Positions 1,505-52,820 of a stretch of 64,000 nucleotides of DNA are shown piece by piece (the stretch's first letter is position 1; the number at the start of each line of letters is the position of its first letter). The notes beneath the pieces were generated by a model. It made no database searches. It was not told the DNA's origin and saw only the letters and a list, made by a program, of their open reading frames with translations. The position numbers and the translations under genes were made by a program. This stretch comes from an uncultured Nitrospiraceae bacterium. GTDB taxonomy: Bacteria; Nitrospirota; Nitrospiria; Nitrospirales; Nitrospiraceae. Where the stretch lies: the NCBI GenBank assembly GCA_963730935.1, contig CAVSTP010000003.1, forward strand, positions 823,270 to 887,269, written 5' to 3'.

Positions 1505-2275
1505 TTACTGCTGGGCTGTCCCCCATCGCTGGTGCATGAAGCGTTCGGTTGGGGCGAACAGTGATTTGTCGACTGCCAGGCCAATGAAAATGATGATGAG
1601 GATGACGCCGATGACTTGGTCCATGGCATGGAGTTCCCGACCATAGTGCAGGAGTTGGCCAAGGCCGAAGCCGCTCAAGATCGTCACGTAAATTTCTGCC
1701 GCCATAAGCGAACGCCAGGCGAATGCCCAGCCCTGTTTCATGCCACTGAGTAAAAAGGGAAGCGCCGCCGGAACGACGACGTGAGTCCAGGTATGCAGGC
1801 CGGTGGAACCCATGGTGCGGGCTGCGCGGCTGTAGATCGGCGGAATAGTCCGCACGCCATTATCCGTGGCGATGACCAAGGACCAGACCGTACCCATGAC
1901 CACGACAAAGAGCATAGCGGCCTCAGTCTGCCCGAACCACAGCAGAGCCAACGGCACCCAACAGACACTTGGGAGTGTCTGGAGTCCTAAGGCGAGAATG
2001 CCAATTGTGTCATGGCACCATCTGAATGATGCGGTCAAGAACCCAAGTGGAAGTCCCACGAGAATACCCAATCCATAGCCGATGAGCAGCCGTCGTACCG
2101 TGACTACGGTGGCTTCCCACAGCGTGCCGTCCTGCGCGGCAGTTCGCAGGTACTCGAAAACGCTCGCAGGCGAAGGCAGCAACAGAGGCGACCAGATTTG
2201 GGCTTTAACGACCAAATGCCACGCCACCACGAGACCCACGAAGAATAACGACGCAGCCAACCATCGTGTGATCAA
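1505..2275 (-). CDS. Sulfonate/nitrate/taurine ABC transporter permease (SsuC/TauC family)
   Basis: Six hydrophobic segments, 'AARTMG' EAA-like loop, 'AWRSLMAAE'. Operon context. Confidence 0.9.
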   Translation of the reverse strand: MITRWLAASLFFVGLVVAWHLVVKAQIWSPLLLPSPASVFEYLRTAAQDGTLWEATVVTVRRLLIGYGLGILVGLPLGFLTASFRWCHDTIGILALGLQTLPSVCWVPLALLWFGQTEAAMLFVVVMGTVWSLVIATDNGVRTIPPIYSRAARTMGSTGLHTWTHVVVPAALPFLLSGMKQGWAFAWRSLMAAEIYVTILSGFGLGQLLHYGRELHAMDQVIGVILIIIFIGLAVDKSLFAPTERFMHQRWGTAQQ

Positions 2276-3078
2276 CCAGCCACCTCCGGCTGAACGTACC
2301 CTTTCAAGACACGCGTGATCTCCGTGGCGTAACGGGCAAGATCCACACTGTTGATGTCACGCGGCCGGGGGAGCGGGATGCTGAATTCTTCGCGGATACG
2401 CCCGGGGTGGGGTGAAAAAAGAATGACGCGATCTCCCAAACAGACGGCTTCGCGCACGTTGTGGGTGACGAACACGATGGTTTTCCGATGTTGGCTCCAG
2501 ATCCGTTGGATGTCGCCGTAGAGTTGCTCACGTGTCAATGCGTCCAAGGCCCCGAACGGTTCGTCCATCAACAGCACGCTCGGATTGGGCGCCAGAGCCC
2601 GCGCAAGCGCGACGCGTTGTTTCATTCCTCCCGACAGCTCATGGACATTCGAGTGCATGAACCGCTTGAGTCCCACGAGTTCGAGAAAATACTCCGCTTT
2701 TTCCCGGCGTTCAGGGGCGCTCAGACCATTGCTGAGTTTCAGGCCGAAGAGCACATTCCCGAGAACCGTGAGCCACGGAAACAGTGCCGACTCCTGAAAC
2801 ATCATCAGCCGGTGGGGACCGGGTTCATTGACAGGCTTGCCGTCGGCCTGGACGATGCCACGATCAGCATGGTCAAGCCCGGCAATGATGTTCAGTAACG
2901 TGGATTTGCCGCAGCCGCTCGGCCCGACCAAGCAGACGAACTCTCCCTCTGCAATGCGGAGGGTCACATCATCGAGGGCGTGCACGTGCAACGAGCTCGT
3001 TTGGAACCATTTCGAAACATGTTCAAGGACCAGCTTGGCGGCCAGCGATGGTGCTGGCGGGTGCTCAGTCGTCAACAT
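2272..3078 (-). CDS. Sulfonate/nitrate/taurine ABC transporter ATP-binding protein (SsuB/TauB family)
   Basis: GPSGCGKST, LSGGMKQR, LLMDEPF, 'LPRPRD' tail. Confidence 0.93.
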   Translation of the reverse strand: MLTTEHPPAPSLAAKLVLEHVSKWFQTSSLHVHALDDVTLRIAEGEFVCLVGPSGCGKSTLLNIIAGLDHADRGIVQADGKPVNEPGPHRLMMFQESALFPWLTVLGNVLFGLKLSNGLSAPERREKAEYFLELVGLKRFMHSNVHELSGGMKQRVALARALAPNPSVLLMDEPFGALDALTREQLYGDIQRIWSQHRKTIVFVTHNVREAVCLGDRVILFSPHPGRIREEFSIPLPRPRDINSVDLARYATEITRVLKGYVQPEVAG

Positions 3079-3079
3079 G

Positions 3080-4048
3080 TCAGTTGAGCCTTTCGATCAG
3101 GCGGGAGAGGTCGGGAGCCGACCGGATGAAACCGGCTCGTTGCGCATCCGCGACGAAATGCCGGTACTCCTCTATGGAGGGATCATTGGTCAGCACGATC
3201 CGCTTCCATGCTTGAGCAATCAGATCGGGCGACACGTCGGCTTTCGTTTCAGCGGCCAGTTCCTGCCTGACCATTTGTTTGGCCTCGTCCGGATGCGAAA
3301 GGATCCATTCCGTCAATTCACGATGGGCACGGACGAACTTCGCCGCGAGGTCTCGCTTTTTCTTGAGAAACTTGACGCCCGAGACCAATACCGTGATGCT
3401 GTCCTTGGACTGCTCGACGAGGACTTTTCCACCAGCATCACGCTCTAAACGCGACACCCAGGGTTCGACTGTCCACACGGCATCAAGCTTCTTGTTTTTG
3501 AACAAGGCAAGCTGATCCGGGTTCGGTGTTGGAATGATGAAGGCATCGCCTCCAGTCTGCGTAATCTTCAGTCCACCGTTGCTGAGCCAAGCCCGGCAGG
3601 CAATGTCCTGCGTGTTGCCCAGTTGGGGAGTCGCAATCGTCTTTCCCCTAAAGTGAGCGGGCTCCTTCAGCCCTGACTCGGGCTGTACGACCAGCGCTGC
3701 CCCTCCCGCGGCGGCGGCGGCGACTATTCTAATCTCTTCACCATTGGATTTTGTATAGGCATTCAAGGCGGGGCTCGGCCCCACATAGGTCAGGTCGATG
3801 GAATCCGCGAGAATGGCTTCCATGGCGCTCGGACCGGCGTTATAGATGTACCACTCGATTTTCACATCCGGGCCCAACCGGTGCTCGAACCAGCCGCGCC
3901 CCGTACGGGACAAATGGTGCGCGACCAGACCTTGGACATGCGTGACATTGGGAAAATGGCCCACTCGGATCGTGTCCCCTGCTGCAGCGAGAGACGGAGC
4001 AGTGGCCATGAAATACGCGAACAAGAGGCTCCACATTATGATGTGCAT
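3080..4048 (-). CDS. Aliphatic sulfonate-type ABC substrate-binding protein (SsuA family)
   Basis: Signal peptide, 'GHFPNVTH', 'TYVGPSP', 'ATPQLGNTQD', 'VEPW'. Confidence 0.85.
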   Translation of the reverse strand: MHIIMWSLLFAYFMATAPSLAAAGDTIRVGHFPNVTHVQGLVAHHLSRTGRGWFEHRLGPDVKIEWYIYNAGPSAMEAILADSIDLTYVGPSPALNAYTKSNGEEIRIVAAAAAGGAALVVQPESGLKEPAHFRGKTIATPQLGNTQDIACRAWLSNGGLKITQTGGDAFIIPTPNPDQLALFKNKKLDAVWTVEPWVSRLERDAGGKVLVEQSKDSITVLVSGVKFLKKKRDLAAKFVRAHRELTEWILSHPDEAKQMVRQELAAETKADVSPDLIAQAWKRIVLTNDPSIEEYRHFVADAQRAGFIRSAPDLSRLIERLN

Positions 4049-4068
4049 GCGTTCACCTTGATTATGAA

Positions 4069-4794
4069 TTATGGGATTGAGACCAGAAGGGAAGTGGTCA
4101 ATGCCGCGGTCGCCAAAAGCCGAGTAGAATCCAACAGCGGAAGACTCGATGGCCGCTCCTCTGACAGCAGTAATGGCAGCTCAGTGCAGCCCAGAATGAC
4201 GGCCTCCGCGCCGCTCGCCGCCATCGTCGAGATGATGTCCTGCACATGCGCCCGAGCTTGAGGCAAATAACGTCCTCGAATGAGTTCGGTTCGGATGATT
4301 CTGTCCAGTTCAATGCGCTTAGGAACCGGCGGCAGCACGATTTCGATTCCATGATGTTCAAAGATCGGCTGGTAGATAGTTCCCTGCATGGCCACCTGAG
4401 TGCCAAGCAATCCCACTCGCCGGTAATTCCGGCGGGTCGTTTCGGCCACAACCGCGGCGGCGATGTGCACCCATGGCACAGGGGACACGACGAGATCGAA
4501 CGCTCGATGCAACGTATTGTTCGGGCAGATGATCAGCTCCGCTCCGGCCTGTGCCAGGAGCGAAGCCGATCGGGACATCAGCGCGGCCACGCCGGGCCAA
4601 TCACCAGCGTCGATGGAGGCCAGGTAGGCCTCGAGCGGCAGTGCGTGCATCGTGATTTCAGGATAGGCATGTCCGCCTGTAAGCCGTTCGGCTTCATGGC
4701 ACAGGGTTCGATAGCAGAGCGCCGCGCCGTCTGCAGTTCCCCCGACGATGCCGATATGGGGCATGTGGTTCAACCGTCCTTCCGTCATGAACAT
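4069..4794 (-). CDS. Aspartate/glutamate racemase family protein
   Basis: 'IGIVGG', 'ICPNNTLH', 'VGLLGT', 'ILGCTELP'. Confidence 0.88.
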   Translation of the reverse strand: MFMTEGRLNHMPHIGIVGGTADGAALCYRTLCHEAERLTGGHAYPEITMHALPLEAYLASIDAGDWPGVAALMSRSASLLAQAGAELIICPNNTLHRAFDLVVSPVPWVHIAAAVVAETTRRNYRRVGLLGTQVAMQGTIYQPIFEHHGIEIVLPPVPKRIELDRIIRTELIRGRYLPQARAHVQDIISTMAASGAEAVILGCTELPLLLSEERPSSLPLLDSTRLLATAALTTSLLVSIP

Positions 4795-4807: not shown

Positions 4808-5533
4808 TCACGGTTTGTTTGTGAGACGGGGCTCGAGCCCCGGAAATCCTGGAAGCGCGGACAGCGCCTCGCGATACTTGATATAGAGTTCTTCCCGCTG
4901 GTCCGGAGCGAACAACTTTCCTCCGGACTTGACCTTGATCAGGTATTCCTCCGGCTCAAAGGTGACATCAAACGCCGACGACCGTTCCGGTACGTTCGGC
5001 ATCTGTCGGTCATATTTGCTGATATCCGGTTCGGGCCCATGACGGTCATGGACCTCGCTGAGGGCGAGCACCAACGTCTCCTGCCGGATCGAGAGCCATC
5101 CAGACGTGCTCTCCTCATCGCCCTGCTCGGTCGCATGACTGAGATGAAAATAGACACGTTCGTCCGGCGAGGCCTGCGCCAGTGCCTTCGAGAGCGCAGG
5201 CGCCAGGAATGTAATTTCTTCATTACGAAACGCTCGAGTCTTTTCGGCCTCTCCCGAAAGCAATCGATGGATGAAGTTGCGGCTTTCCCAACTACGAACA
5301 CCTCGCAGTAAGGTGCCAATTTCTTCGGGCGAGAGATTCGCCGGGTGGCCGTTGGTCGTGACCTCGGGGTCTTTCTCGAGCCAAATCTGGTTTCTCCCCG
5401 ATTCGTAAATGATCTTTGTCGGTGGGTGAGGAGCGCCCGCGCAACCAGCACCGCCCATCAATCCCATCATGACGAACAGCGGCCAGATGAACCAGCCGAC
5501 ACGTTCATTGTGCGATATTGTCCAGCCCTTCAT
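4808..5533 (-). CDS. Putative lipoprotein, paralog of 10580-11242
   Basis: Lipobox-like 'GAGC'. Shares 'PDERVYF' and 'GW.SIR' motifs with 10580-11242. Confidence 0.8.
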   Translation of the reverse strand: MKGWTISHNERVGWFIWPLFVMMGLMGGAGCAGAPHPPTKIIYESGRNQIWLEKDPEVTTNGHPANLSPEEIGTLLRGVRSWESRNFIHRLLSGEAEKTRAFRNEEITFLAPALSKALAQASPDERVYFHLSHATEQGDEESTSGWLSIRQETLVLALSEVHDRHGPEPDISKYDRQMPNVPERSSAFDVTFEPEEYLIKVKSGGKLFAPDQREELYIKYREALSALPGFPGLEPRLTNKP

Positions 5534-6354
5534 GGTCTGACCTCCTGCCGCAATACCAACCCGGTTTTGTCTAACGCCTGATCGAACCCATACTTTTTCA
5601 ATTCATCCTGAGTGCGTGAAGAAAGAAGGAATTCGATAAAATCTCCGGACCCCGAAATGTTCCTCGCCGTCCAAACAATGGCAACCCCGTACTGAATCGG
5701 CGAATGGGATTCGGCTGGCGCCGTATCCAGAATGCGCACGTGGCTGTCCGTGATGGCGTCCGTCCGGTAGACGACGCCGATTTCGGCCTCGCCTTTCGCG
5801 ACAAGATCCAGCACAGCACGAGAATGTTCACCGTAGACGTATTGGGACTTAAGTGCAGGATCGAGCTTGCTGAATTTGAGAAACTGCGACGCGACTTTCC
5901 CCACCGATGAAGTCTTCGGATCGCCGACAGCAATACGCCGGACGGGAATCGTGCGCAAATCTTCGATGGAACGGATCGGAGCGGGGAGCACGGGACCTGT
6001 GATCAAGACCAGCGAAGTGCCGGCATAGATGCGTTTGGTGCCTTGAATGATCAACCCTTTCTTGTCGAGTTGATCAATCTCCTCGGACAGTGAGGGCAGA
6101 AACACATCTACCGGCGCCCCTTCCTCGATTTGTTTGCGGAGAGACTGTGAGGGACCGTAGATGACACGCACCGTCACTGCCGGGTGCTGCGATTCGAACG
6201 CAGGAAGCAGCGTGCGGAGGGCATCTTTGAGGCTATTCGCCGCCGCAATGGTCAGAGTTTCTGGCTGTGCAAAGGCACGATCGGGAATCCATGCCAGCAC
6301 GGCAAGCAGACTCAGCACGATGATAGACAAGTGAAACACGCGATGCTTTTTCAT
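5530..6354 (-). CDS. ModA-family oxyanion-binding periplasmic protein (atypical)
   Basis: Start reassigned to ATG 6354 (GAGG RBS, signal peptide). 'QIEEGAPVDVF', 'IAVGDPK', 'GVVYRTDA', 'HSPIQY', 'YGF'. Confidence 0.85.
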   Translation of the reverse strand: MKKHRVFHLSIIVLSLLAVLAWIPDRAFAQPETLTIAAANSLKDALRTLLPAFESQHPAVTVRVIYGPSQSLRKQIEEGAPVDVFLPSLSEEIDQLDKKGLIIQGTKRIYAGTSLVLITGPVLPAPIRSIEDLRTIPVRRIAVGDPKTSSVGKVASQFLKFSKLDPALKSQYVYGEHSRAVLDLVAKGEAEIGVVYRTDAITDSHVRILDTAPAESHSPIQYGVAIVWTARNISGSGDFIEFLLSSRTQDELKKYGFDQALDKTGLVLRQEVRP

Positions 6355-6367
6355 GGTGTCCTCGCTG

Positions 6368-8002
6368 CTAGAAATAGAACTGGTATTGGACGTTGATGCG
6401 GTTTTCGACCAGCTTCTGGCCGAATCCCGGTTGCGATTCAAATGGAAAGCGATCAGGGGCTCGCCCGCCGCTTCCCATGGTGATGTTGGAGTAGTCGATC
6501 ACCAGTCGGTTGTTGTACGTGCCGTCGAAGCTGTAATTGAGAGCGGCACCGAATTCATAGGTGAGGTCATGTGTTTGCTTCGTTGAGGGATCGAGCACCC
6601 CATAACGGAGAGCGAGTTCGATTTTGCGGGGGATGATGTATTTCCCACCTTGGACATACCAGCCCCATGCCTGACCCAAATCTACCGGAGGGCCCTGGAT
6701 TGCAGTTGACGGGATCGTTGTCAGATCGAAGGGTTGAGTCCCGCTGTCTTTGTTCCGGACTCGTTGATGCCGGTAATAGACTTCGCTATGTAAAGACCAT
6801 CCCTGATATTTGGCGACGAAATCCACTTCGTAGGTCTGAAAATCGTAAATGCCTCCGCCGAGGAGTCGGCCATTCATAGCCTTCGTGACGGCTTGACGGT
6901 AGGCACGGTCGACGATGTCAGAACGTGTCGAGCTCAGATAATTCTGTGCGGGATCATAGGCATAGCCGAAGCCAATGGCGGACTGAGGAGTGCGGGAGTT
7001 TACAATGTCTCCCCAACCGTAACCCGGGTTGCCGGCGATCTTGTACAGCAGACGAGCGGTGTACATGAGTTCCCCGCTCATGAAGCGAGTGTCATAGTTA
7101 TACGTACGCGTCACTCCAGAATTGACTCCACCGCCTCCCGTTGGCGGCAACACATTTTGGCTCACGGATGTTCCGTCCCGTGCCAGGTTTGGCCCGACGC
7201 CGCCCCACACGCCGAACGCGTAATTGAACTTGTATTGCTCCTCGTCGCTCAAAATGCTAATGCCGATGTCGCGCGTGTTTTGAAGGTTGGCTGCAAACAT
7301 ATTCTGGACGATCATGTTGTCCGAAAAACTTGACGTGGCGACTGGGCTGATGAGCGCGCGATTGAACCACACCTTTTGTTGCCCGATTTGGATGTTGGCC
7401 CAGGGGATGTGCCAGGACGACACATAGGCGTCCAGGAGTCCGGCTTTGCCGTTGCTTCCTTCTTGATTCGATGGCGTCGAATCCATCTGCAGGGAGACGT
7501 TGTAGCGAAAATTGGGGTCAAAGGCATAACCCATGAATTGAAGACGGGCGCGAGGAATCAAGAATTGGCTAGAATCGGATTCCCGCCTGAAGGCCCGAAA
7601 TTCGACCTGACCTCCCAGGATTTCTTCATTCCGTGAGTCACCGATGGATCCCCACGCCTTATTATAGGTGCTGTAGGTGTAGCGAGTCTGCACCAGCAGC
7701 CGCATTTTCAAAAAGAATCTGTCACCGACACGGATGTTCAACCCATTGTTGACATCAATATTGAAATTCGGTTTTGCGAGACGCTCCTTCGTTTCCAATG
7801 TGCGAAGGCCTTTGTTGTACTCTTCCTGTGAGATGATGCCTTTGAGATAAAGGTATTTCAGTCCTGGATCCTCGCTCGAAGAGTATTCCCATTTCCCTTC
7901 TTTTTTGACGAACTGGCCCTCTTCAACTGCCCAGGCAGCGCCGAGGTGAGCGAACAGGATCGTTCCTGTCACGATAAACATAAACCATCCGGAAATTCTC
8001 AT
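6368..8002 (-). CDS. Outer-membrane porin (phosphate-selective OprO/OprP-like beta-barrel)
   Basis: Signal peptide, 'RARLQFMG', 'LLDAY', 'GQQKV', 'RDIG', terminal 'VQYQFYF'. Confidence 0.8.
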   Translation of the reverse strand: MRISGWFMFIVTGTILFAHLGAAWAVEEGQFVKKEGKWEYSSSEDPGLKYLYLKGIISQEEYNKGLRTLETKERLAKPNFNIDVNNGLNIRVGDRFFLKMRLLVQTRYTYSTYNKAWGSIGDSRNEEILGGQVEFRAFRRESDSSQFLIPRARLQFMGYAFDPNFRYNVSLQMDSTPSNQEGSNGKAGLLDAYVSSWHIPWANIQIGQQKVWFNRALISPVATSSFSDNMIVQNMFAANLQNTRDIGISILSDEEQYKFNYAFGVWGGVGPNLARDGTSVSQNVLPPTGGGGVNSGVTRTYNYDTRFMSGELMYTARLLYKIAGNPGYGWGDIVNSRTPQSAIGFGYAYDPAQNYLSSTRSDIVDRAYRQAVTKAMNGRLLGGGIYDFQTYEVDFVAKYQGWSLHSEVYYRHQRVRNKDSGTQPFDLTTIPSTAIQGPPVDLGQAWGWYVQGGKYIIPRKIELALRYGVLDPSTKQTHDLTYEFGAALNYSFDGTYNNRLVIDYSNITMGSGGRAPDRFPFESQPGFGQKLVENRINVQYQFYF

Positions 8003-8142
8003 GTCGGGACTCCTTCATGACATGGGAACTTCCGGTGGTCCGGTCAGTCCGTAACGTAAATTGTAGGTCCATCTCGATCACCACCTTTAGTTGTCTGGCA
8101 GGCGGTGAGTTCCTTCCCTAAACGAACAGGTCAATGCGACGC

Positions 8143-8316
8143 TCATCCAACAAGTGATGCGCGGCGCGACGGCTCCAGCTCCACGCGCACCTTTTCTCTG
8201 CGCTCGATCTGGACGACCTTCGAATCGTGGACGATGATTTCCACCGATCCGAAACGCAGGTCTTTCAACGCTTGCAAGATGGTTTGTTCGATTCTGTAAC
8301 CGTCGTCAGATCGCAT
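8143..8316 (-). CDS. YezD/DUF2292 family small protein
   Basis: 'LKDLRFGSVEIIVHDSKVVQIERREKVR' is the typical DUF2292 signature. It heads a sulfur-uptake operon. Confidence 0.85.
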   Translation of the reverse strand: MRSDDGYRIEQTILQALKDLRFGSVEIIVHDSKVVQIERREKVRVELEPSRRASLVG

Positions 8317-8350
8317 AAAGAACCTCAACTCAAATGGCGTGAAAAGCGGT

Positions 8351-8414
8351 TAATCTACAGTATTCCGCTAGATTTTATGTGCTATATATAAATTAACATT
8401 ATCTACATTGTCAA
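8351..8414 (-). promoter_or_regulatory. Putative sigma-70 promoter and operator of the left (sulfur) arm
   Basis: TTGACA on the minus strand (8409-8414), AT-rich -10 region near 8385-8390, and inverted repeat AATCTA-N11-TAGATT (8352-8374) just downstream. Confidence 0.5.
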
Positions 8415-8490
8415 CAATTATTTTACGACCCTTGTTGCTGATCTAATCAAGAACCCATGTCAGATAGGACCTACCGGGATGAGAGGACAG

Positions 8491-8514
8491 TATACTTGAC
8501 TAAAAGCAAGTATA
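8491..8514 (+). promoter_or_regulatory. Palindromic operator overlapping -35 of the molybdate arm
   Basis: TATACTTG-N8-CAAGTATA perfect inverted repeat overlapping TTGACT, 21 bp before ATG 8536. Confidence 0.6.
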
Positions 8515-8535
8515 AATGGTATCTGGTCTGCCAAC

Positions 8536-9708
8536 ATGGGTCAAAACAACCAGGCCGAACCTGCTCATTTCTTTCAGAATCGTCTGAAGAACGTCCGCAT
8601 CGCCAAAGGATTCTCGCAAGCGGAACTTGCCGCGAAATCCGGAATCACCAGACAAGCCGTCTCTGCCATTGAATCTGAAGTCTATCTTCCCACCACCGCA
8701 GTTGCCCTGCGATTGGCTTCCGTTCTCGCGTGCCGCGTGGAAGATCTCTTCAGCCTCGCCGAACCAGATGAGGTGATCGAGGGGACGTTCATTGGGACTT
8801 CACCACCGATCGACGCGCGGACTGTGCCGCTCCGAGTCAAAGTCGCGACGGTTGGGACAAAAACTATCGTTCGTCCGGTCAACGGACTTGGCGACGTGCT
8901 GTCGTACACGGTTCCGGCAGACGGATATTTAATCGATACCCTCTCACAGCGTTCGGGTGTCAAAGCCCGGGTGCGTCTCTCCCGCGATCGGCAATCTGTC
9001 GAGCGCGACATATCCGTGGCCGGGTGCGATCCCGCCATTTTCCTCGCCGGAGAACATTTGCGTCGCCAAAAAGATCAGGCCTCTGTGATCGGCTGGACCA
9101 TGGGCAGCACGGCTGCGTTGCAGGCGCTTGAGCGGGGAGAAGTGCATGTGGCGGGGCTTCACTTGTTCGACCCTTCGAGCGGCGAATCCAACCTGCCCTT
9201 CCTGAAACGCGTCCTGAAAGGAACGGCGTATGACGTCGTGACCTTCGCAACCTGGGAGGAAGGATTTCTCGTTCGACCTGGCAATCCAAAAGGGATCCAC
9301 GAAGCTGCTGATCTTGCCGAGTCGAACGTGAGATTGATCAATCGTGAAGAGGGATCCGGAGCCCGCCTTTTGCTCGACCAACGTCTGCGCGCTGCCGGTC
9401 TTGACCACACTCAGATACAAGGCTACGACACAGTCCTGTGGTCACATTTTGACGTGGCTCGTGCCATTGCGGGCCATCAGGCTGATGTCGGTATCGGCAT
9501 CCGATCGGCCGCTCAGCTGTTCGGATTGGATTTCGTCCCGGTCCAAGCCGCCCGTTACGACCTCGTCGTGCCGACGCCCTACCTCAGGTCTCATCCGACG
9601 CTCGCGAATCTCTTCGACACGCTCGTCAGCCGGTCGTTCCGAAATGAGATCGAGGCGCTGGGCGGCTACGACACACGAGACACAGGCAAACTGCATTCGC
9701 TGCGATAA
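8536..9708 (+). CDS. XRE-HTH regulator fused to PBP-superfamily molybdate-binding domain
   Basis: N-terminal 'LKNVRIAKGFSQAELAAKSGITRQAVSAIE'. C-terminal 'GSTAAL...HVAGLHL', 'INREEGSGAR', 'LGGYD'. Confidence 0.88.
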   Translation: MGQNNQAEPAHFFQNRLKNVRIAKGFSQAELAAKSGITRQAVSAIESEVYLPTTAVALRLASVLACRVEDLFSLAEPDEVIEGTFIGTSPPIDARTVPLRVKVATVGTKTIVRPVNGLGDVLSYTVPADGYLIDTLSQRSGVKARVRLSRDRQSVERDISVAGCDPAIFLAGEHLRRQKDQASVIGWTMGSTAALQALERGEVHVAGLHLFDPSSGESNLPFLKRVLKGTAYDVVTFATWEEGFLVRPGNPKGIHEAADLAESNVRLINREEGSGARLLLDQRLRAAGLDHTQIQGYDTVLWSHFDVARAIAGHQADVGIGIRSAAQLFGLDFVPVQAARYDLVVPTPYLRSHPTLANLFDTLVSRSFRNEIEALGGYDTRDTGKLHSLR

Positions 9709-9718
9709 GGAGATAGCG

Positions 9719-10547
9719 ATGATGTGGAGTCGGCTTGTCAGTCTGAGCGTTCTGTGTCCTGGGGCTAGAGATCTCTCCCGCCGTGGCCACGGAACAATTA
9801 GTCATTGCCACCTCACCCAGTATGCGTGTTCCCGTCGAGGCGCTGGGACGTCAGTTCGAAAAGACACATCCTGAGATCCGCGTACGGCTGTTTTTCGATT
9901 CGGGCCTCGACCTTCGCCGAACCATCGCCGGCATGGAGAATAGTCCTCGAGGGCAGTACTTCATCGGCTCAGGTCCTATTCATCTAGTGGCGCCAGGCGG
10001 CGATGAGCTGATTACTCGTCTTGAACAGAAGTATTACGTCCTGCCGGGAACGAAGCGGCCCTATGCGGAGGTGCCGCTGGTCATGGTCGTGCCCGAGGCA
10101 CTCGTTGATGCTCCGACGTCGTTTGAAGCCTTGGGCACGAACGAGACGTTGCGGATCGCGGTGGGTGACCCTGAACTGACCACCCTTGGTCACCAGACCA
10201 AGCAGCTGTTGACGACACTGGGAGTGTGGTCATCCGTCGAAGGCCGACTGGATGAGGCAAGCGACACACGGTCGGTGTTGGATCATTTGCTCAATGGGCA
10301 GGCCGACGTTGGGGTCCTTTTTGGACCCGACGCGGTGCAGGAAAGCCAACGCATTCGGATCGTGGCTGTTTCCGAGCGCGGCACGATTCCGCCCGTGGTC
10401 CATTCCATGGCGATGGAACGGTATTGTCCCAATCGCGCACTTTGCCAAGAGTTTCTTGGCTTCATTCAATCTGCTGAAGCCCAGAAAGAACTCCAGCGCC
10501 TGGGGTACACGCCGCCGCCACAAAGCCAGTCCATGAAGAAAGACTGA
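9719..10547 (+). pseudogene. ModA-family binding protein (atypical) with frameshift in the signal peptide
   Basis: AAGGAG + ATG 9719 encodes MMWSRLVSLSVL. The rest (VLGLEISPAVA-TEQL..., ORF 9783-10547) is in another frame, with the junction at ctgtgtcctg (~9755). Confidence 0.7.
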
Positions 10548-10579
10548 TTACAGATGCAGCTATCTAAGAAGAGGAGGCG

Positions 10580-11242
10580 GTGATGAGTAGCCGGATAGGG
10601 TTCTTGTCAGCGTTTGGTCTTATATTTTTGTTTTTCGCAAGCATCGTGTCGGGAGGGTGCGCCAGACTCCCATACACAACGTCGGTCATTCACGAGGATC
10701 GTCGTGTTGTCGTGTCACTTCAACGGGATCCCCATGCGGTTTCCTACACTCATCCCGTCCACCTCCAAGCCAACGACCTCGCTGCTATTCTGAACGGATT
10801 TTCGTTCCGTGAAAAACAGCGATTGCCGCTCCGGTGGTTCGCGGAAGAGGTGCCGCCGAAGAAGATTTTCCGTTCCGATGAAATGCAAGCTATCGTGCCT
10901 TTTCTAATAGAAGGGCTCGAGAAGGCAGCTCCTGACGAGCGCGTCTATTTTCAAGTGCTGGCGCCAGGGATGAATCCTGCCTCGGAACGAGACACGACCG
11001 CCGGATGGATCGCTGTGAGAGAGCCCTTCCTCCACCTAGCGCTCGAGCACTACCACGCGCAGTTTCCCATCAGGAAATCCGAACAGTGGGACCTCCGCTA
11101 TCCCGCCACCCCTCCGGAGCCAAAGACGTACCTGCTGTACTTCGAGCCGGGACGGTTCTGGGAGACAGAGCCGGTGAGCCGCAGGGAAGCCGTGCAGCTC
11201 CGTGAGTTTCTCAAGGCCGCCGTTCCCGCTTCTCCGAAATAA
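10580..11242 (+). CDS. Putative lipoprotein, paralog of 4808-5533
   Basis: GAGGAGG RBS, lipobox-like 'SGGC', shared 'PDERVYF' and 'GWIAVR'. Confidence 0.8.
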   Translation: MMSSRIGFLSAFGLIFLFFASIVSGGCARLPYTTSVIHEDRRVVVSLQRDPHAVSYTHPVHLQANDLAAILNGFSFREKQRLPLRWFAEEVPPKKIFRSDEMQAIVPFLIEGLEKAAPDERVYFQVLAPGMNPASERDTTAGWIAVREPFLHLALEHYHAQFPIRKSEQWDLRYPATPPEPKTYLLYFEPGRFWETEPVSRREAVQLREFLKAAVPASPK

Positions 11243-11314
11243 AGCACTGAACACCGTAGCGATAGGGCCATCCAAACTTGTTGCTCATTCATATTCTTTG
11301 CTTCGGGAGGGATT

Positions 11315-13072
11315 ATGGGAATGTCAAGCCGTTCAGATGCCAACGCGAGGCGGTGCCGTCGTGTACATGGCATCATCGTTCTGATTGGACTTATCTTCTG
11401 CATCCTGCAAGTGGATCCCGTTCAGGCGGTTGATTCTGGCAAACTTATCGAGAAGGACGGGCAATATGTCTTTGTCGAAAGCATGGATCCGGCCACGCGA
11501 CTCTTACTGGAGCGAGCCTATGAAAAAGGCATCATTAGTCAGGAGGAACGCGACAAGGCGATCAAAGAGTCCGAAGCCCGCGCGTATCTCATGCAGCCGA
11601 GTTTCAAAATGTGGTACGACCGCGGCTTCAATTTTTCAATGAACGATAACGCGTTTCTCCTCAAGATCCGAGGACGCATGCAGTTGCGGGAAACGACTCG
11701 TTGGAGAAACGATGCCTGGAGAAATCCGGGCGACGCAAAAAATTATCCGGAACTCCTTGGCGTGTTTGGCGACTACCGTGCCAATCGATCGGATGATTTT
11801 GCCTCGCAATTCAATTTACGGCGGGCTAGGCTGTTGTTTCTCGGTCACCTCCTCAGTCCAGACTTCAAGTACTTCCTTCAGATCGGATTTGAAACAGCTG
11901 AAAATGCCCAAACTCCTGGATCAGCCAACTTGCTGGACTACTATGTTCTCAGCACACATCTTCCCCTCTTAAATGTGCAACTGGGCCAGTACAAGATCTA
12001 CTTCAACCGCTCACAGATCAACAACACCGCCTCCATGCAATTCGCCGAACGGGCGCTGGTCATGGATGCGTTCACGGCCAACGGCATGAATCGGCGGGAT
12101 ATCGGTCTGACGATCATGAACGATGACGAAATCTACCCCGTCAATTATTACCTGGGGATTTTCAACGGCGCGGGTCCACTCTTTAATCGCTATGGCACCT
12201 ACAACAGTGAAGAAGCCACGGTGGGATGTCCTGGTGGGCAAACTGGCGGCAACCCTTTCCCTTCTCCGGCCGGATGCCCGGTCAATTCGCGCAATCTCAA
12301 TGCCAACTTTCGCGACGAGATCGACAAGCTGATGTATGCCGGGCGGCTCCAGTGGAATATTCTGGGACGGCCGGGATATGGCGAAGGCGATTTGGCCTAT
12401 TCAGAAGCCCCGCAGATGGCGGTGGGCGGCGGGCTCGCTTACAACCCCGGTATCAATACGAGCACCGACAACGCGTTTGTCGGCATCGACTTGGCGAACC
12501 TGAATTTCCGTCGTCAGTTGGCGACGTTCGGTAATGGACGCCAATTGGGGTGGGGGGTCGTCAACTACACGACTTACGCGTTCGACGGCGTCTTCAAGTA
12601 CAGAGGCTTCTCGCTTCAAGGGGAATATTACTTCAAAAACATCGAGCGGACATTCAAAGGTGCGCCGTGTTTACAATTCAATGCGGCGGGAGCTTGTACC
12701 GCCGTGACACCTCAGCTCTTGGGGAACGCGACCGGATGGTATGTGCAGTCGGGGTATTATCTGATTCCTCGACATTTGGAAGTGGCCGCGCGGTATGCCT
12801 ATTGGGACCCCGATACCAATGCGGCCGGCGACCTGATCAAAGAGGTCGATGTGTCGCTCAATTGGTTTCCCTTTGGGAACTATGATTATCAGCTCATGTT
12901 GACCTATACAAATCTGGCGATGGGCACGGGCGGCTATGCGATCGGCCGCAGTGCACCTTTGCCGACGCAGCCGCCTGGAGCGGTCAATCCCTCTGGAACG
13001 GTGCCGCTCGACGCGGTAGGGGGAACTTTGATTGAAAATGCGATTCGCGTGCAGCTGCAGATCTTCTTCTGA
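11315..13072 (+). CDS. Outer-membrane porin (OprO/OprP-like), paralog of 6368-8002
   Basis: Shared 'KGIISQEE', 'RRARL', 'LLDYY', 'GQYKIYFNR', 'RDIG', 'GWYVQ'. Terminal 'VQLQIFF'. Confidence 0.8.
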   Translation: MGMSSRSDANARRCRRVHGIIVLIGLIFCILQVDPVQAVDSGKLIEKDGQYVFVESMDPATRLLLERAYEKGIISQEERDKAIKESEARAYLMQPSFKMWYDRGFNFSMNDNAFLLKIRGRMQLRETTRWRNDAWRNPGDAKNYPELLGVFGDYRANRSDDFASQFNLRRARLLFLGHLLSPDFKYFLQIGFETAENAQTPGSANLLDYYVLSTHLPLLNVQLGQYKIYFNRSQINNTASMQFAERALVMDAFTANGMNRRDIGLTIMNDDEIYPVNYYLGIFNGAGPLFNRYGTYNSEEATVGCPGGQTGGNPFPSPAGCPVNSRNLNANFRDEIDKLMYAGRLQWNILGRPGYGEGDLAYSEAPQMAVGGGLAYNPGINTSTDNAFVGIDLANLNFRRQLATFGNGRQLGWGVVNYTTYAFDGVFKYRGFSLQGEYYFKNIERTFKGAPCLQFNAAGACTAVTPQLLGNATGWYVQSGYYLIPRHLEVAARYAYWDPDTNAAGDLIKEVDVSLNWFPFGNYDYQLMLTYTNLAMGTGGYAIGRSAPLPTQPPGAVNPSGTVPLDAVGGTLIENAIRVQLQIFF

Positions 13073-13089: not shown

Positions 13090-13617
13090 ATGATATTACG
13101 CAAGACGGATCTGGTCGCCTTCCAAGAAACACACGCCATGGCGGCTCGGGGAGTCGAGAGTGGCAGTCTTTCGGCAGAAGGGACCATCATGAATTGGGTG
13201 AGGGGACTGATCCGTTCGCAATATGTCGGCCTCGTTCGATCCGGCGTTCGAATCAAGGTCGGGGCGCGAACGGATCTCCGCATCAGATGGACGAAACGAG
13301 AAGAACGATGTTTCATCGTTGGCCAACCGGTTGTCGCCATAATCCCTGCCGGCGCAGTGCGTCTGGAAAGTGGACTGTTTCGCCGGAGCAAACAGCGGTG
13401 GAATCGCTGGGTTGGCCGCATCGTGTTGATCGAGCACCTGGAAGTTGGTGTCGTGTATTCAGTAAAAGTGCATAGAGAGGAATGGACCCTCAAGAGCCTG
13501 GGGTCCGTCCTCGGAGCGAAACAGCCGAGTAGGCCGTGGGACGTCGTCAATGTGGTCGTCGATCCCCAGGTTGTGGAATTGTCGGTTGCCGCTCCATGTT
13601 TGATGAGGCATACCTAA
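13090..13617 (+). CDS. TOBE/OB-fold-like protein
   Basis: Two 'N..G.I' beta-rich repeats ('GQPVVAIIPAGAV', 'VNVVVDPQVV'). Mod operon context. Confidence 0.55.
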   Translation: MILRKTDLVAFQETHAMAARGVESGSLSAEGTIMNWVRGLIRSQYVGLVRSGVRIKVGARTDLRIRWTKREERCFIVGQPVVAIIPAGAVRLESGLFRRSKQRWNRWVGRIVLIEHLEVGVVYSVKVHREEWTLKSLGSVLGAKQPSRPWDVVNVVVDPQVVELSVAAPCLMRHT

Positions 13618-13631
13618 GGAAGGATTGTTCG

Positions 13632-14435
13632 ATGAACAAGTTGAATCCCTATATCCGGAATTTATGTGTTGCAGGTTGGGCGGCGCTAATCATATGCGTA
13701 GGTGCGCAACTCGCGCTTCGTCAGGACGCTGTTGCCGAAGAGATCGTAATCGCCGCTGCGTCGGATTTGAATTTCGCAATCAAAGACGTCATTGTCGAGT
13801 ATGAGAAGGCGACCGGGAACCATGTCAAGTTGTCCTTGGGTTCGTCCGGGAACTTTTATGCGCAGATTCAGAATGGCGCTCCGTTCGATCTGTATTTTTC
13901 GGCGGACATCGCCTACCCCAAGAAACTGGAAGAGGCGGGTCTCATTGTGCCTGGGTCCTTATACCGCTATGCGGTCGGTCGGATCGTTCTCTGGACCAAT
14001 CATGCCTCCCGGCGGGATGTGTCCAAGGGAATGGATGTCCTTCGCGATCCTGCCGTAAAAAAAATTGCGATCGCCAATCCGAAACACGCGCCGTACGGGA
14101 GGGCCGCCGTTGCGGCGATGCAACACTTCAAGGTCTATGACGAGGCAAAAGACCGACTGGTGTTGGGAGAAAACATCTCGCAAGCCGCCCAATTCATCGA
14201 ATCCGGCGCCTGTGATGTCGGCGTGATTGCCCTCTCGCTGGCGCTGGCGCCGACTATGAAAGCGGCAGGCACCTATTGGGAAATTCCAAGTGACGCTCAT
14301 CCCCCACTGGAACAGGGTGCAGGGATCTTGAAATCGTCGAAACAACAAGAGACCGCGAAGCAATTTTTAGAGTTTATGCGAGGCAAACAGGGACAGGAGA
14401 TCATGACCCGTTATGGGTTTACGCTTCCGCAATAA
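13632..14435 (+). CDS. modA: Molybdate ABC transporter substrate-binding protein
   Basis: 'AAASDL', 'GSSG', 'NGAPFD', 'IANPKHAPYG', 'LGENISQ', 'YGF'. Confidence 0.93.
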   Translation: MNKLNPYIRNLCVAGWAALIICVGAQLALRQDAVAEEIVIAAASDLNFAIKDVIVEYEKATGNHVKLSLGSSGNFYAQIQNGAPFDLYFSADIAYPKKLEEAGLIVPGSLYRYAVGRIVLWTNHASRRDVSKGMDVLRDPAVKKIAIANPKHAPYGRAAVAAMQHFKVYDEAKDRLVLGENISQAAQFIESGACDVGVIALSLALAPTMKAAGTYWEIPSDAHPPLEQGAGILKSSKQQETAKQFLEFMRGKQGQEIMTRYGFTLPQ

Positions 14436-14730
14436 CCCGGTCTGGCTGTTGACGCTCGTGCTGCTGGGCGGCTGTTCCGATGCGGTGCAGATGACGCACG
14501 AAACGGAGCAGGGAGGCGTGGTGACCTTTCTCTTCAAGGAAGACCGGGGCGGTCCGATGGGCTCGCCGCACCGCAAGGCCGCACTGAAACTTGTCGAGGA
14601 GAAGTGTCCCAAGGGCTATATCGTCCTCCGCGAGGGTGAGATGAAAGGCTACAGCAGCATGTCCAGTGTAGAGGGCCAGGAAGGAGAAATTGCGAATCGT
14701 CGATGGGGAATCCAATTTCGATGCAAATAG
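14413..14730 (+). CDS. Small putative lipoprotein
   Basis: Lipobox 'LGGC', two further Cys, overlaps the modA stop region. Confidence 0.7.
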   Translation: MGLRFRNNPVWLLTLVLLGGCSDAVQMTHETEQGGVVTFLFKEDRGGPMGSPHRKAALKLVEEKCPKGYIVLREGEMKGYSSMSSVEGQEGEIANRRWGIQFRCK

Positions 14731-14738
14731 GAGCGGGT

Positions 14739-15248
14739 ATGCGATCGGTTACTATAGCGGTCGGCCTCGTTTGGTTGCTCACAGTAACGAGCGTTGGCTC
14801 CGAAGAGCATCTGAATTGTCGGCCGTCCGCGGCGGAAGGATTCTCCAATATTCAAATGGAAACATCAGACATCACGTTGCACGAACAACTGTTTGAGCAG
14901 GTATTTCACGCGCAGAGCATCCAGCGCTTGGACCACCCTCAAACGGATCTGATTCGCATCTATTGTCTCCGTGATGTCGTTGTGGCGATCAGGCAGGATC
15001 TTCGTCAACCGCGCCAAACCGGATGGGTGCAAATCAACTTTTGGGTCAAGGATGTGGCGTCGCTGCAGGAGACGCTGTCGACGGCCGTGCGTGACTCGGC
15101 ACTGGGTCAACTGGCCGACGCAGACCGAGATAAAGTGGTTCGGTTTCGGATGAAACAGGGTGTCATGCGAGGGCAGCGAAAGGTAGACCGCTTGGAAGTC
15201 TACGGACCCGAGGGGTTTCTGATCGGCTTTGATCAACCCACACATTAA
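14739..15248 (+). CDS. Secreted hypothetical protein, VOC/glyoxalase-like C-terminus
   Basis: Signal-like N-terminus, 'INFWVKDV' and 'YGPEGFLIGF'. Confidence 0.55.
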   Translation: MRSVTIAVGLVWLLTVTSVGSEEHLNCRPSAAEGFSNIQMETSDITLHEQLFEQVFHAQSIQRLDHPQTDLIRIYCLRDVVVAIRQDLRQPRQTGWVQINFWVKDVASLQETLSTAVRDSALGQLADADRDKVVRFRMKQGVMRGQRKVDRLEVYGPEGFLIGFDQPTH

Positions 15249-15260
15249 CAGGAGGACGCC

Positions 15261-15464
15261 ATGAAACTAAGCGCGCGCAATCAATTTCAAGGCACCGTGA
15301 CCCGCATCACCGAGGGGCAGGCGATGGCCGAGGTGGCGGTGAAAGTGGGTAATCTCGAGTTCATCGCGGCGATCACCGAAGGGTCGGTGAAAAATATGGG
15401 CCTCAAGCTGAACGATTCAGTTACTGTGGCAGTCAAAGCGACTGAAGTCATGATCGGGAAATAG
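15261..15464 (+). CDS. mop: Molybdenum-pterin binding protein (molbindin, TOBE)
   Basis: 'MKLSARNQFQG...AVKATEVMI', strong RBS. Confidence 0.92.
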   Translation: MKLSARNQFQGTVTRITEGQAMAEVAVKVGNLEFIAAITEGSVKNMGLKLNDSVTVAVKATEVMIGK

Positions 15465-15566
15465 CCGGCGTTGACTATGCCGACAGCGGCTTTCTACTAT
15501 GGCGCCGCCTTCGGAAAGCCGGCGCCATGGCGGCGCGCCGTTGAATCATCCGGTTAAGGCGGCACT

Positions 15567-16241
15567 GTGAGCTGGACGGCCATTTGGGTAACGTGCAAAT
15601 TGGCAAGCCTGACCTCGATGGCGCTGCTCGTCATCGGATTGCCTATTGCCTATTGGCTGACCTTTTCGAAGTGGCGGTGGAAATTTCTCGTCGAATCGAT
15701 CGTGGCGCTTCCGTTGGTGCTGCCACCGACGGTGCTGGGCTTTTACATCCTGGTCGCCATCGGTCCCCATAGTCCGATTGGCCGGTTGTATACCGACATC
15801 GTGGGTCAGACCCTCCCATTCAGCTTCCAGGGTCTGCTCGTTGCTTCGATCTTGTACAGTCTTCCATTTGCCGTTCAGCCGTTCGCGACAGCCTTCGATC
15901 AGGTTGACCGCAACCTCATCGAAGCTTCGTGGACTCTCGGCCTTTCCAAAGCCAAAACGTTCTTCAAGCTGATCATTCCACTCTCTGCCGCTGGTGTAAT
16001 CACCGGCGCAGTCTTGAGCTTTGCCCATACCCTCGGCGAGTTCGGGGTTGTCCTCATGGTCGGCGGGAACATCGAAGGGGTCACTCGAACGGTCTCCATC
16101 GACATCTATGATGACGTCCAGGCGCTCAACTATGGCGCCGCGGCCAACACGGCATTGTTTCTGCTGGTCGTTTCCTATGCCGTCTTACTGTTCATCTATG
16201 CGATGAATCGCAAGGTCTGGGCGGTATGGCCGCAGAAGTAG
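15567..16241 (+). CDS. modB: Molybdate ABC transporter permease
   Basis: 'LPLVLPPTVLGFY', 'FAHTLGEFGVVLMVGGNI'. Confidence 0.95.
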   Translation: MSWTAIWVTCKLASLTSMALLVIGLPIAYWLTFSKWRWKFLVESIVALPLVLPPTVLGFYILVAIGPHSPIGRLYTDIVGQTLPFSFQGLLVASILYSLPFAVQPFATAFDQVDRNLIEASWTLGLSKAKTFFKLIIPLSAAGVITGAVLSFAHTLGEFGVVLMVGGNIEGVTRTVSIDIYDDVQALNYGAAANTALFLLVVSYAVLLFIYAMNRKVWAVWPQK

Positions 16242-17317
16242 CGATCGAGATTACCAAGGCCTTTCCCGCACGCGCACCCATTAGCGCCGTGCTGAGGTAC
16301 CAGCTTCAGCAAGCCACCGCACTGGTGCTGTTCGGGCCGTCAGGATCCGGAAAAACAACGGTGCTACGGTCCATCGCCGGTCTCGAATGGCCGGAGCGAG
16401 GGAGCATCCGATTCATTTCGCGCACCTGGCTCGATACCACCGCAGGGATTCGCGTGGCTCCGCAAGATCGCCAGATCGGATATATGGCGCAGGACTATGC
16501 GTTGTTTCCGACCCACACCGTTGCGGGAAACATTGCCTATGGATTGTCGGCGCTTCCAGCGGCCGAACGGAACAGGCGTGTCGATGAAATGGTGGAACTG
16601 TTCCAGCTGCGCGGCCTTGAAACATCCAAGCCCAGGGAACTGTCCGGCGGGCAACAGCAGCGTGTGGCGTTGGCCAGGGCCGTGGCAACTCGGCCGCAAT
16701 TGCTCCTGCTCGATGAGCCGCTCTCCGCGCTCGATATCCCCACGAGGATGCAGCTCCGTGGAGAGCTCCGAACGTTGCTGAAGCGTCTGGCCTTGCCTTC
16801 GATCATCGTCACCCATGATTGGGCAGAAACACTCAGTCTCGGAGACCTGGTGGCGGTGATGGGAGAAGGACAGGTGATACAGGTCGGCTCACCACAAGAG
16901 GTCTTTTGTCGACCGGCCAACGCTATGGTGGCTCAAATTGTCGGTGTTGAAACGGTGATTGAAGGCCATGTCATCGAGGAGGTGGATGGGCTGGCGACCG
17001 TTCGGGTGAACGGAACCTTGCTGAAGGGTTTGGGCGGCTATGCGATCGGCTCCGCGGTGTTTGTCTGTGTTCGTGCCGAGGATGTGGTGTTAGAGCAGGG
17101 TGGCACCGGACTGACCAGCGCACGAAACCATCTGAATGGAAAAGTCATCGAGATCATCCCTCATGGCGTCATGGTCCACGTAAAGATTGACTGTGGCTTC
17201 CCACTCATCGCCATGGTCACCCGAGGGGCGCAGCAGGAGTTGAGGATCGAATTGGGATCTCCCGTGGTGGCCGTTATTAAGGCCGGAGCCGTCCATCTGG
17301 TGCCAAGAACGGAGTAA
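16226..17317 (+). CDS. modC: Molybdate ABC transporter ATP-binding protein
   Basis: GPSGSGKT, LSGGQQQR, C-terminal TOBE 'SARN...IKA'. Confidence 0.92.
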   Translation: MAAEVAIEITKAFPARAPISAVLRYQLQQATALVLFGPSGSGKTTVLRSIAGLEWPERGSIRFISRTWLDTTAGIRVAPQDRQIGYMAQDYALFPTHTVAGNIAYGLSALPAAERNRRVDEMVELFQLRGLETSKPRELSGGQQQRVALARAVATRPQLLLLDEPLSALDIPTRMQLRGELRTLLKRLALPSIIVTHDWAETLSLGDLVAVMGEGQVIQVGSPQEVFCRPANAMVAQIVGVETVIEGHVIEEVDGLATVRVNGTLLKGLGGYAIGSAVFVCVRAEDVVLEQGGTGLTSARNHLNGKVIEIIPHGVMVHVKIDCGFPLIAMVTRGAQQELRIELGSPVVAVIKAGAVHLVPRTE

Positions 17318-17682: not shown

Positions 17683-18228
17683 ATGAAGCCAAACGATCTC
17701 AAACGTATTCGAGAGCAACTGGGATTGACGCAGCAGCAACTTGCTGATGCGCTCCGCACGACCCGGGTCTCGGTTGCGCGGTATGAGGCGGGGATGCGAC
17801 GGATCCCCGGCATGGTCAAGGTGGCGATCGATCGGCTTGGCCGGGTGTCTGAAATTCCAATGGCCGGCATTGTCGCCGCGGGACTTCCGATTGAACCGGT
17901 GCAACAGTCCGAACTCATCGACGTGCCGCCCAGCATGCTCCAAGGTGGAAAGACATTCGCGTTGCGTGTGAAGGGGGAGTCGATGAAAGACGAAGGAATT
18001 CTTCCCGGGGATCTCATCGTCGTTCGCAAACAGGAAACGGCGCAGAACGGCCAAACCGTCGTGGCGCTGGTCAACGGCGAGGCCACGGTGAAAACCTATG
18101 TCAAGAAGCCGGGACATATTGAACTGCATCCTGCGAATGCGGCCATGCAGCCGATTGTCGTACAGCCGGCTGATGAATTTCATATTGAAGGGGTGCTCAT
18201 CGGCGTGATTCGCCATTGTGCCATCTAA
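17683..18228 (+). CDS. LexA/CI-like repressor (XRE HTH + S24 peptidase)
   Basis: HTH 'LTQQQLADAL', Ala-Gly site 'VAAGLP', catalytic Ser 'GESM' and Lys 'ATVK'. Confidence 0.9.
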   Translation: MKPNDLKRIREQLGLTQQQLADALRTTRVSVARYEAGMRRIPGMVKVAIDRLGRVSEIPMAGIVAAGLPIEPVQQSELIDVPPSMLQGGKTFALRVKGESMKDEGILPGDLIVVRKQETAQNGQTVVALVNGEATVKTYVKKPGHIELHPANAAMQPIVVQPADEFHIEGVLIGVIRHCAI

Positions 18229-18256
18229 GAAATCTCAGAAGGGAGGCGGTATACAT

Positions 18257-18653: not shown

Positions 18654-18665
18654 GCGAGGTGAGTC

Positions 18666-52701: not shown

Positions 52702-52820
52702 AGAGTTTACCGTCAGTGGCCAACGCTGCCTAAAGTAGTCATGCTTCATTTTTTCATTTTGTCTTAGCCACGTCGAGTCCCGGTCGCCCCCCCGCGGCGC
52801 GCCTTCCGGTGGGCGAACAT

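Follow-up and report, generated by a model that had tools for sequence, protein, structure and literature searches.

Two paralogous three-gene sets, each encoding a porin, a protein with the fold of the molybdate-binding protein ModA and a lipoprotein, stand on either side of a divergent promoter region in a stretch of 64,000 nucleotides (the window, C3:823270-887269) from the genome of an uncultured Nitrospiraceae bacterium, which is assembled to 4.05 Mb in six contigs. Close homologs carry the labels Nitrospira or Nitrospiraceae. The left triad is encoded on the minus strand and consists of a porin of 544 amino acids (6368..8002), a ModA-fold binding protein of 274 amino acids (5530..6354) and a lipoprotein of 241 amino acids with its lipobox cysteine at residue 31 (4808..5533). 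The right triad, on the plus strand, consists of a frameshifted ModA-fold protein with a conserved 12-residue insertion (9719..10547), a lipoprotein of 220 amino acids that is a paralog of the left one (10580..11242) and a porin of 585 amino acids of the Porin_O_P family (11315..13072). The analysis shows that the module is real and lineage-restricted, and that it is built on a known porin type and a new lipoprotein partner with a predicted interface. The two triads likely act as entry gates with separate regulation, one for sulfur compounds and the other for molybdate. That each triad is one entry unit for a scarce oxyanion, a sulfur anion on the left and molybdate on the right, is about as likely as not. 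A description of this module was not found in the open literature searched, which comprised titles and the beginnings of abstracts.

Both three-gene sets of the preliminary description were recovered. The gene order is porin-ModA-lipoprotein in the left arm and ModA-lipoprotein-porin in the right arm, and the paralogs are 36% (porins), 28% (lipoproteins) and 28% (ModA-like proteins) identical. Since a single 31-nucleotide match is the only DNA similarity between the arms, a recent duplication is not indicated. A simple duplication of the whole triad, as had been suggested, is no more than plausible: the left and right lipoprotein clades join at a Shimodaira-Hasegawa-like approximate likelihood ratio test (SH-aLRT) value of 89 only, and the left ModA-like protein lies nearer to paralogs that have no porin than to the right one. 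The trees of lipoproteins and ModA-like proteins are quick trees, and a careful search of the lipoprotein tree is unfinished.

Inheritance of the triads was followed in 36 genomes of the family that are at least 90% complete (23 from a draw across the phylum and 13 of 24 genomes of the same genus) and in the best 80 of 106 left-porin loci from a genome collection; these survey sets overlap, and related genomes are not independent samples. The right porin, ModA-like protein and lipoprotein were all three present in the same 22 genomes and all absent from the other 14. The left triad was all-or-none in 35 of the 36 genomes, with porin and ModA-like protein in the same 18 and the lipoprotein in 19, the extra copy standing at the start of a contig. 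The order porin-ModA-lipoprotein was intact in every one of the 69 left-porin loci with at least 1.7 kb of downstream sequence (the remaining 11 of the 80 were too short). Whole triads have been lost across several genera, the left one in G005, G022, G118 and G145, the right one in G184 and both in 13 genomes. The arms are convergent in G099 and G148 and lie on separate contigs in G111, each arm being intact, and G049 carries a third cassette, distant from genes for ATP-binding cassette (ABC) importers and placed between a chemoreceptor and a PAS kinase, whose porin scores over the Porin_O_P cut-off. The conservation of the triad goes far beyond chance, and the dedicated module proposed in the preliminary description is borne out by this co-occurrence across genomes, in which the triad is gained, lost, moved and replaced whole. 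We consider it improbable that the three genes are nothing but co-regulated neighbours, that is an ordinary porin of the OprO/P type, a surplus binding protein and a lipoprotein of a general Nitrospira kind, with no physical complex between them. All three families do have unlinked paralogs, operon neighbours could go together in one deletion, and homologous porins (35%) of another family are encoded in an rrf2-tauE-porin operon, where they have no partners. Against this, the genes stay linked in both gene orders, when inverted or split into separate arms, and in a third copy, no broken left triad was seen in the 69 informative loci, and the complex modelling described below gave 0.70 versus 0.00 for the best control. 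Mirror-tree correlations were modest (0.32-0.67) and are not used as support. Two apparent fusions were also found. A ModA-lipoprotein fusion (P0122, 512 amino acids) has its linker out of frame and was rejected as a frameshift artefact, since the corresponding locus has a broken porin gene as well and four members of its cluster occur in split form; a lipoprotein-kinase fusion (P0121, 800 amino acids) is a single sequence and probably an artefact too.

The left porin was modelled as a barrel of 16 strands with an N-terminal hairpin and a helix pair, at a predicted local distance difference test score (pLDDT) of 77.8, and its closest solved folds are OprP (E 7.7e-15) and OprO (E 2.7e-14). The Porin_O_P family (PF07396, cut-off 20.9 bits) is matched by the right porin with 39.4 bits, and the left porin gave no match to it at E up to 0.1; the porin profile matched no PDB sequence. 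Basic residues K99, R101, R107, R215, R244, R306 and R317, among others, are conserved in the porins of both arms. The left porin, ModA-like protein and lipoprotein were then modelled as three chains with the lipoprotein as the scored partner and three controls. The complex reached a score of 0.70 versus 0.00 for the best of the controls, the porin-replaced control included. The score mark is reached by 116 of 157 solved complexes versus 2 of 215 mismatched pairs, counts that apply only roughly here. The model runs share at least 69% of contacts, and the pLDDT of the partner is at least 75. Neither the sequence nor the fold searches turned up a similar complex, which makes a pass by memorised structures less likely. 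The complex model supports binding between porin and lipoprotein. As to the three-way interface envisaged earlier, the model thus predicts the porin-lipoprotein part and is neutral on contact with the ModA-like protein: only four ModA-like residues touch the lipoprotein, and the porin-replaced control that keeps the ModA-like chain scored 0.00.

A loop of the lipoprotein (residues 167-183, nucleotides 4985-5035, or 137-153 in mature numbering) is predicted to insert into the porin, where it would contact the N-terminal segment of the barrel, short turns and an inward loop. The contact side is likely the periplasmic mouth of the barrel, judging by the order of the modelled strands. Interface columns are more conserved than the average in the left porin (0.95 versus 0.85), the right porin (0.90 versus 0.81) and the left lipoprotein (0.92 versus 0.77), and a G-T-Y turn within the interface is present in porins of the triad type and missing in all five other porins that were added. 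Two sequence segments had been singled out earlier as common to the paralogs, and both are present. KGIISQEE occurs in both porins but is not specific to the triad, as this N-terminal segment is 45% identical over 51 amino acids in the alginate-export barrel found elsewhere in place of the right triad, while PDERVYF (residues 123-129), common to both lipoproteins, falls outside the predicted interface.

The left lipoprotein has no Pfam, NCBIfam or PDB sequence match. Its model (pLDDT 83.2) had no Foldseek match at E up to 0.001, and the best Z score among 48161 chains was 4.2 (none reached 5), so that the protein is a structural target without a solved match, although a lack of match would be compatible with a known family such as the LptE or SusD type; its neighbours in the Atlas that carry a SHOCT domain (0.82-0.83) offer no more than leads. 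The lipobox cysteine is found in 103 of 103 aligned rows and is followed by alanine in 96, a sequence feature compatible with sorting to the outer membrane by the Lol rule. Matches to the lipoprotein profile number 8 in the host genome and 4-10 in each of 23 genomes of the family; the sister family has 1-5 copies (10/10 genomes) and a third family 3-4 (5/5), and none were found in the 117 genomes of the phylum draw outside two families. Many family lipoproteins adjoin porin-like genes at phosphate, urea and arsenite-oxidase loci, and the pst locus carries its own porin-like gene. At the urea (urtABCDE) and phosphate (pstSCAB, Slp, PstS-like) loci L002, L003 and L004 of G000 (C3:520-523 kb, C4:1416-1421 kb and C4:557-563 kb), paralogous lipoproteins stand beside porin-like genes and extra binding proteins, the Porin_O_P gene of L003 being split across frames. 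Locus L081:1503-7028 combines a porin-like gene with an arsenite oxidase-like molybdopterin enzyme (Rieske 3Fe-4S) and a family lipoprotein, near ars-like genes. A cluster of tatC, a BNR-repeat gene, a cyclophilin gene and a lipoprotein gene is conserved with no adjacent porin (L001:8033-11168; L079, L085, L089, L092, L097), and extra right-type porin-lipoprotein pairs are accompanied by a TOBE-like protein and a response-regulator-like gene beside large secreted proteins (L043:7285-13036, L049:8022-12502). The main rival reading, possible if doubtful, is that the lipoprotein is a subunit for assembly or stability of this porin subfamily and not a gate, with the ModA-like proteins as scavengers or decoys that share its regulation but stay free and outside any complex. 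The predicted interface with invariant barrel residues fits a structural partner equally well, pairs of porin and lipoprotein without a ModA-like gene exist, and family members are found beside the porin-like genes for phosphate, urea and arsenite oxidase.

The second half of this explanation bears on the ModA-like proteins. Both pass the cut-off of TIGR01256 (62.5 bits), the left one with 164.5 and the right one with 70.6 bits, and both match solved ModA structures. Ser12, Ser39 and Tyr170 are named as anion contacts in the section of PMC8895017 consulted, and these residues were mapped by alignment to solved ModA. In the left ModA-like proteins the equivalents of each are found in 61 of 61 sequences; in the right ones they are found in 33 (Ser12), 8 (Ser39) and 6 (Tyr170) of 43. 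As the equivalents of Ser39 and Tyr170 are mostly gone from the right copy, the ModA-like protein of the molybdate operon appears from its sequence to be the least likely molybdate binder. The idea of a ModA-like molybdate shuttle does not fit well with a molybdate-operon copy that mostly has lost two of the three anion-binding side chains. Neither triad protein has a permease of its own. Ahead of modBC stands a distinct canonical modA, which persists at loci where the triad has been replaced, and the triad copies are not the binding subunit of ModBC. In the quick tree, the left ModA-like proteins form a group (SH-aLRT 95) with the copy of the third cassette and with paralogs that lack a porin, and the right ones and canonical Nitrospira ModA form separate clades. 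The existence of solo ModA-like paralogs would suit free scavengers. On the other side, the ModA-like gene is kept or lost with its partners (right arm 36/36, left arm 35/36 genomes), and the right copy is co-kept although its degenerate site would be of little use to a free scavenger. The solo paralogs, which have no permease, are mostly divergent from resistance-nodulation-division (RND) clusters (L005:10020-10844, L006:9595-10395, L123, L128-L135), and at L122:5846-7898 a second left-type ModA-like gene (60%, site intact) lies right before a lone cysA-like ATPase gene.

The right ModA-like gene had been listed as one open frame, which does not hold: it is 829 nucleotides long and, compared with relative L151, contains one extra base near 9757 in the signal peptide, the body being in frame from 9783. 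The signal peptide is intact and in frame in all 55 relative loci examined, and 3 of 168 tested loci in the host genome are split between frames. An assembly error and a fresh mutation both remain as explanations of the frameshift.

The function of the triads is suggested by what takes their place. Among 57 loci that carry the right-arm regulator, 40 continue into the triad (one of them with a ModA-like protein of 28%), 8 into a lone alginate-export barrel and 9 are too short. In all four triad-less genomes with the regulator that were inspected (G184, G127, G081, G067), the regulator is followed by a PF13372 barrel and then modABC; in G067, oscA is followed by one Porin_O_P gene and then sbp. 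Three genes thus give way to a single porin gene, from which we infer outer-membrane entry as the function of the triad, and each triad seems to be a single unit for entry through the outer membrane. The inner-membrane partner of the left arm varies between ssuABC-like genes, sbp with or without cysTWA, and none; in other genomes sbp-cysTWA takes the place of the racemase and ssu genes, and no sbp was found in the host genome. A histidine kinase and a sigma-54 regulator often follow the left triad and are the first recognised genes in 7 long loci. This pair, the third cassette of G049 between chemoreceptor and PAS kinase without ABC genes, and the apparently non-binding form of the right ModA-like protein would be in line with a triad that acts mainly as an envelope sensor, relaying pore binding or flux to neighbouring signalling instead of feeding ABC importers. 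Such a role has little probability, given that one ordinary porin gene takes over the operon slot of the triad, the kinase pair persists in genomes that have lost the left triad (G005, G118, G145), and none of the triad proteins shows an obvious inner-membrane or signalling domain. Further genes were observed next to the sulfur arm of relatives. At L039:3-3678 (G001) it goes on into cysK, an SrpI-like encapsulin shell gene and a desulfurase-like gene. A secreted protein of 340-350 amino acids, which has no Pfam or NCBIfam match and is possibly another barrel, is often encoded first after the sulfur operator (L061:10053-11099; L052, L068, L070, L123, L125) and is kept when the left triad is lost.

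The reading of the triads as entry units with separate regulation draws on the region between the arms. It had been described as a single divergent promoter region; the arms are indeed divergent, but an alignment of 13 intergenic regions revealed two back-to-back sigma-70-like promoters with different operators, flanked by an oscA-like gene and a regulator gene. The -35 box of the leftward promoter lies on the minus strand at about 8409-8414, and a conserved left operator is situated just downstream of this promoter (8350..8376). A matrix of the left operator was built from 12 relatives, leaving out the own site, and scanned over 4116 upstream regions, of which the left operator itself ranked best (31.6 bits). 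The second-best site lies before the Rrf2 gene that heads sir-cysH-cysD-cysN (19.1 bits) and the third scored 15.1 bits. A left-type operator precedes Rrf2-sir-cysH-cysDN in 5 of 5 other genomes (13.4-22.4 bits) and none of 10 other Rrf2 genes (at most 6.0 bits), and the sulfur operator is retained where the left triad is lost. It was not found before cysK (rank 378), a test that is weakened by a small gene upstream of cysK. The Rrf2 protein meets the cut-off of the Rrf2 superfamily, and its best named match is CymR (NF047409) with 91.3 bits, under the cut-off of 195. On the right, a conserved palindrome (8491..8514) covers the -35 box (8496-8501) of the rightward promoter. The palindrome is unique in the genome, where no second site was convincing (33.6 versus 18.3 bits, with the own site in the model), and a wider molybdenum regulon is thus not indicated. 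It is likely the operator of the adjacent regulator (8536..9708, plus strand), the first gene of the molybdate operon, which encodes an XRE-type helix-turn-helix (HTH) domain and a PBP_like domain (PF01381, PF12727). Autoregulation by this protein is suggested by its likeness to TaoR, as far as TaoR is presented in the part of PMC11980592 consulted. The proposed split into a sulfur type and a molybdenum type is reflected in these distinct control regions, and also in the neighbouring genes, as the left arm is continued by a racemase gene and ssuABC-like genes and the right arm by modABC.

Taken as a mechanism, each of the two entry units would have an OprP-like barrel whose periplasmic side is plugged by a loop of the lipoprotein, itself anchored in the membrane, and the ModA-fold protein would likely dock at the barrel exit. 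For the left unit the imported anion would likely be sulfate or another sulfur anion related to it, with control by cysteine starvation; the right unit would likely import molybdate ahead of ModABC. The loop with Tyr174-Asp175 (precursor numbering) would lie next to basic residues where the pore ends on the inside, and would serve as a gate or an adaptor. The left ModA-like protein might capture the anion and pass it to SsuA or Sbp; the right one, its site lost, might be a structural or gating subunit, with canonical ModA taking the molybdate. A passive pore cannot lift the free anion above the outside level. The earlier notion of pre-concentration is limited accordingly: accumulation of free anion falls away, and the proposal that stands is a unit that would raise capture and selectivity, not free concentration.

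Several observations weigh against the entry-unit reading. It is gene linkage, and not the complex model, that places the ModA-like protein in the complex, and the interface columns of the right lipoprotein are not above average (0.69 versus 0.71). The right ModA-like gene is frameshifted in this assembly, and the left ModA-like protein has close paralogs (39-42%) that are accompanied by neither porin nor lipoprotein and are mostly encoded next to RND efflux genes. The lipoprotein family has 8 copies here, including several conserved ones beside tatC, miaB and atp genes without a nearby porin, and the one linked to tatC has retained a similar Y-D loop. A ModA-like gene is missing from two extra porin-lipoprotein pairs of the right type. 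The sulfur operator is weak in G099, G148 and G021 (7.6-10.0 bits), and the left triad has no downstream sulfur ABC genes in at least 10 of 61 long loci. Related genomes share ancestry, so that the counts are not independent. Against the interpretation of the preliminary description stands that many Nitrospiraceae live without either triad, neither porin being present in 13 of the 36 genomes. A wider proposal can be put forward only tentatively. A Nitrospirales family of porin-adaptor lipoproteins with an undescribed fold (4-10 copies per Nitrospiraceae genome) might plug small passive barrels on the periplasmic side and couple them to dedicated binding proteins, giving an energy-independent, gated three-part uptake of sulfate and molybdate and probably also of phosphate, urea and arsenite. 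The binding protein of the molybdate unit would then be a non-binding gate subunit. The host genome has two nitrite oxidoreductase-like (NxrA-like) genes, and such an organism needs molybdenum in dilute habitats; amoA was not found in a search whose control gave no signal either. The locus also provides natural controls in its intact and degenerate binding sites and in the triad and its single replacement porin.

The remaining genes of the two arms are as follows. The left operon begins on the minus strand with a small DUF2292/OscA-like protein (8143..8316; PF10055, 5.9e-17), which scores 57.5 bits with NF033785 (OscA), below the cut-off of 85, and downstream of the left triad it continues with an Asp/Glu racemase-family gene and the ssuA/B/C-like ABC importer (1505..4794, minus strand). 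On the plus strand, the right porin is followed by an accessory open reading frame (ORF) of 175 amino acids that is patchy among relatives (13090..13617) and of which one paralog has a weak TOBE_2 match. As noted previously, a canonical modA-modB-modC set is present downstream of the right triad, in a plus-strand block (13632..17317) composed of modA (13632-14435), a lipoprotein of 105 amino acids (14413-14730), an ORF of 181 amino acids, mop (15261-15464), modB (15567-16241) and modC (16226-17317). The 105-amino-acid lipoprotein matched no family and has paralogs at the phosphate locus and on C2. In most relatives a lexA-like/imuA-like cassette, candidate labels given from sequence, follows modC (window 17683-19394). 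Elsewhere in the window, a direct repeat of 645 nucleotides (25329-25973 and 52818-53462) is 99.7% identical, and shorter repeats are found at 55622-55972 and 63651-64000 (94%) and at 30655-30823 and 42525-42692 (97%).

Parts of the module resemble known systems. Lipoproteins that sit on or in an outer-membrane barrel are known from LptD-LptE, RcsF with outer-membrane proteins (OMP) and SusC-SusD; here the barrel would be a small 16-strand passive anion pore, apparently plugged by a loop from the periplasm. The ModA of ModABC has the fold and TIGR01256 in common with the triad proteins, and the triad copies fall outside the canonical Nitrospira ModA clade. CymR is likewise of the Rrf2 type, and here the Rrf2 protein heads a sulfate-assimilation operon that shares the left operator. 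The right-arm regulator has the combination of HTH and PBP_like also seen in TaoR, but TaoR carries HTH_17 and the right-arm regulator HTH_3 (the part of PMC11980592 consulted). ExtI of Geobacter sulfurreducens (NF040900) is the best NCBIfam match of both porins, with 17.1 and 27.9 bits at a cut-off of 150. In the section of PMC5877670 consulted, the ExtI porin is tied to selenite and tellurite handling in a conserved cluster, and the ext cluster has several c-type cytochromes, whereas none were recognised in the triads; the passage of 10.1101/138586 consulted names only the urea porin fmdC. The phosphate porins OprP and OprO of Pseudomonas aeruginosa (PF07396; PDB 2o4v, 4rjw; with PstS) share with the left porin model the barrel of 16 strands, and with the triads a starvation-type operon feeding an ABC importer; the triad porins have many invariant basic residues. 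The left porin is only 11-13% identical to them, and their context is phosphate, whereas the triad porins occur in a sulfur and a molybdenum context. We know of no such lipoprotein or ModA-fold subunits for OprP/O. Anion porins of this kind are usually seen as stand-alone passive channels, and unlike them the triads have an obligately linked lipoprotein and an extra ModA-fold protein; a plug combined with a binding protein would, if true, be a new form of gating or biasing the passive entry of trace anions.

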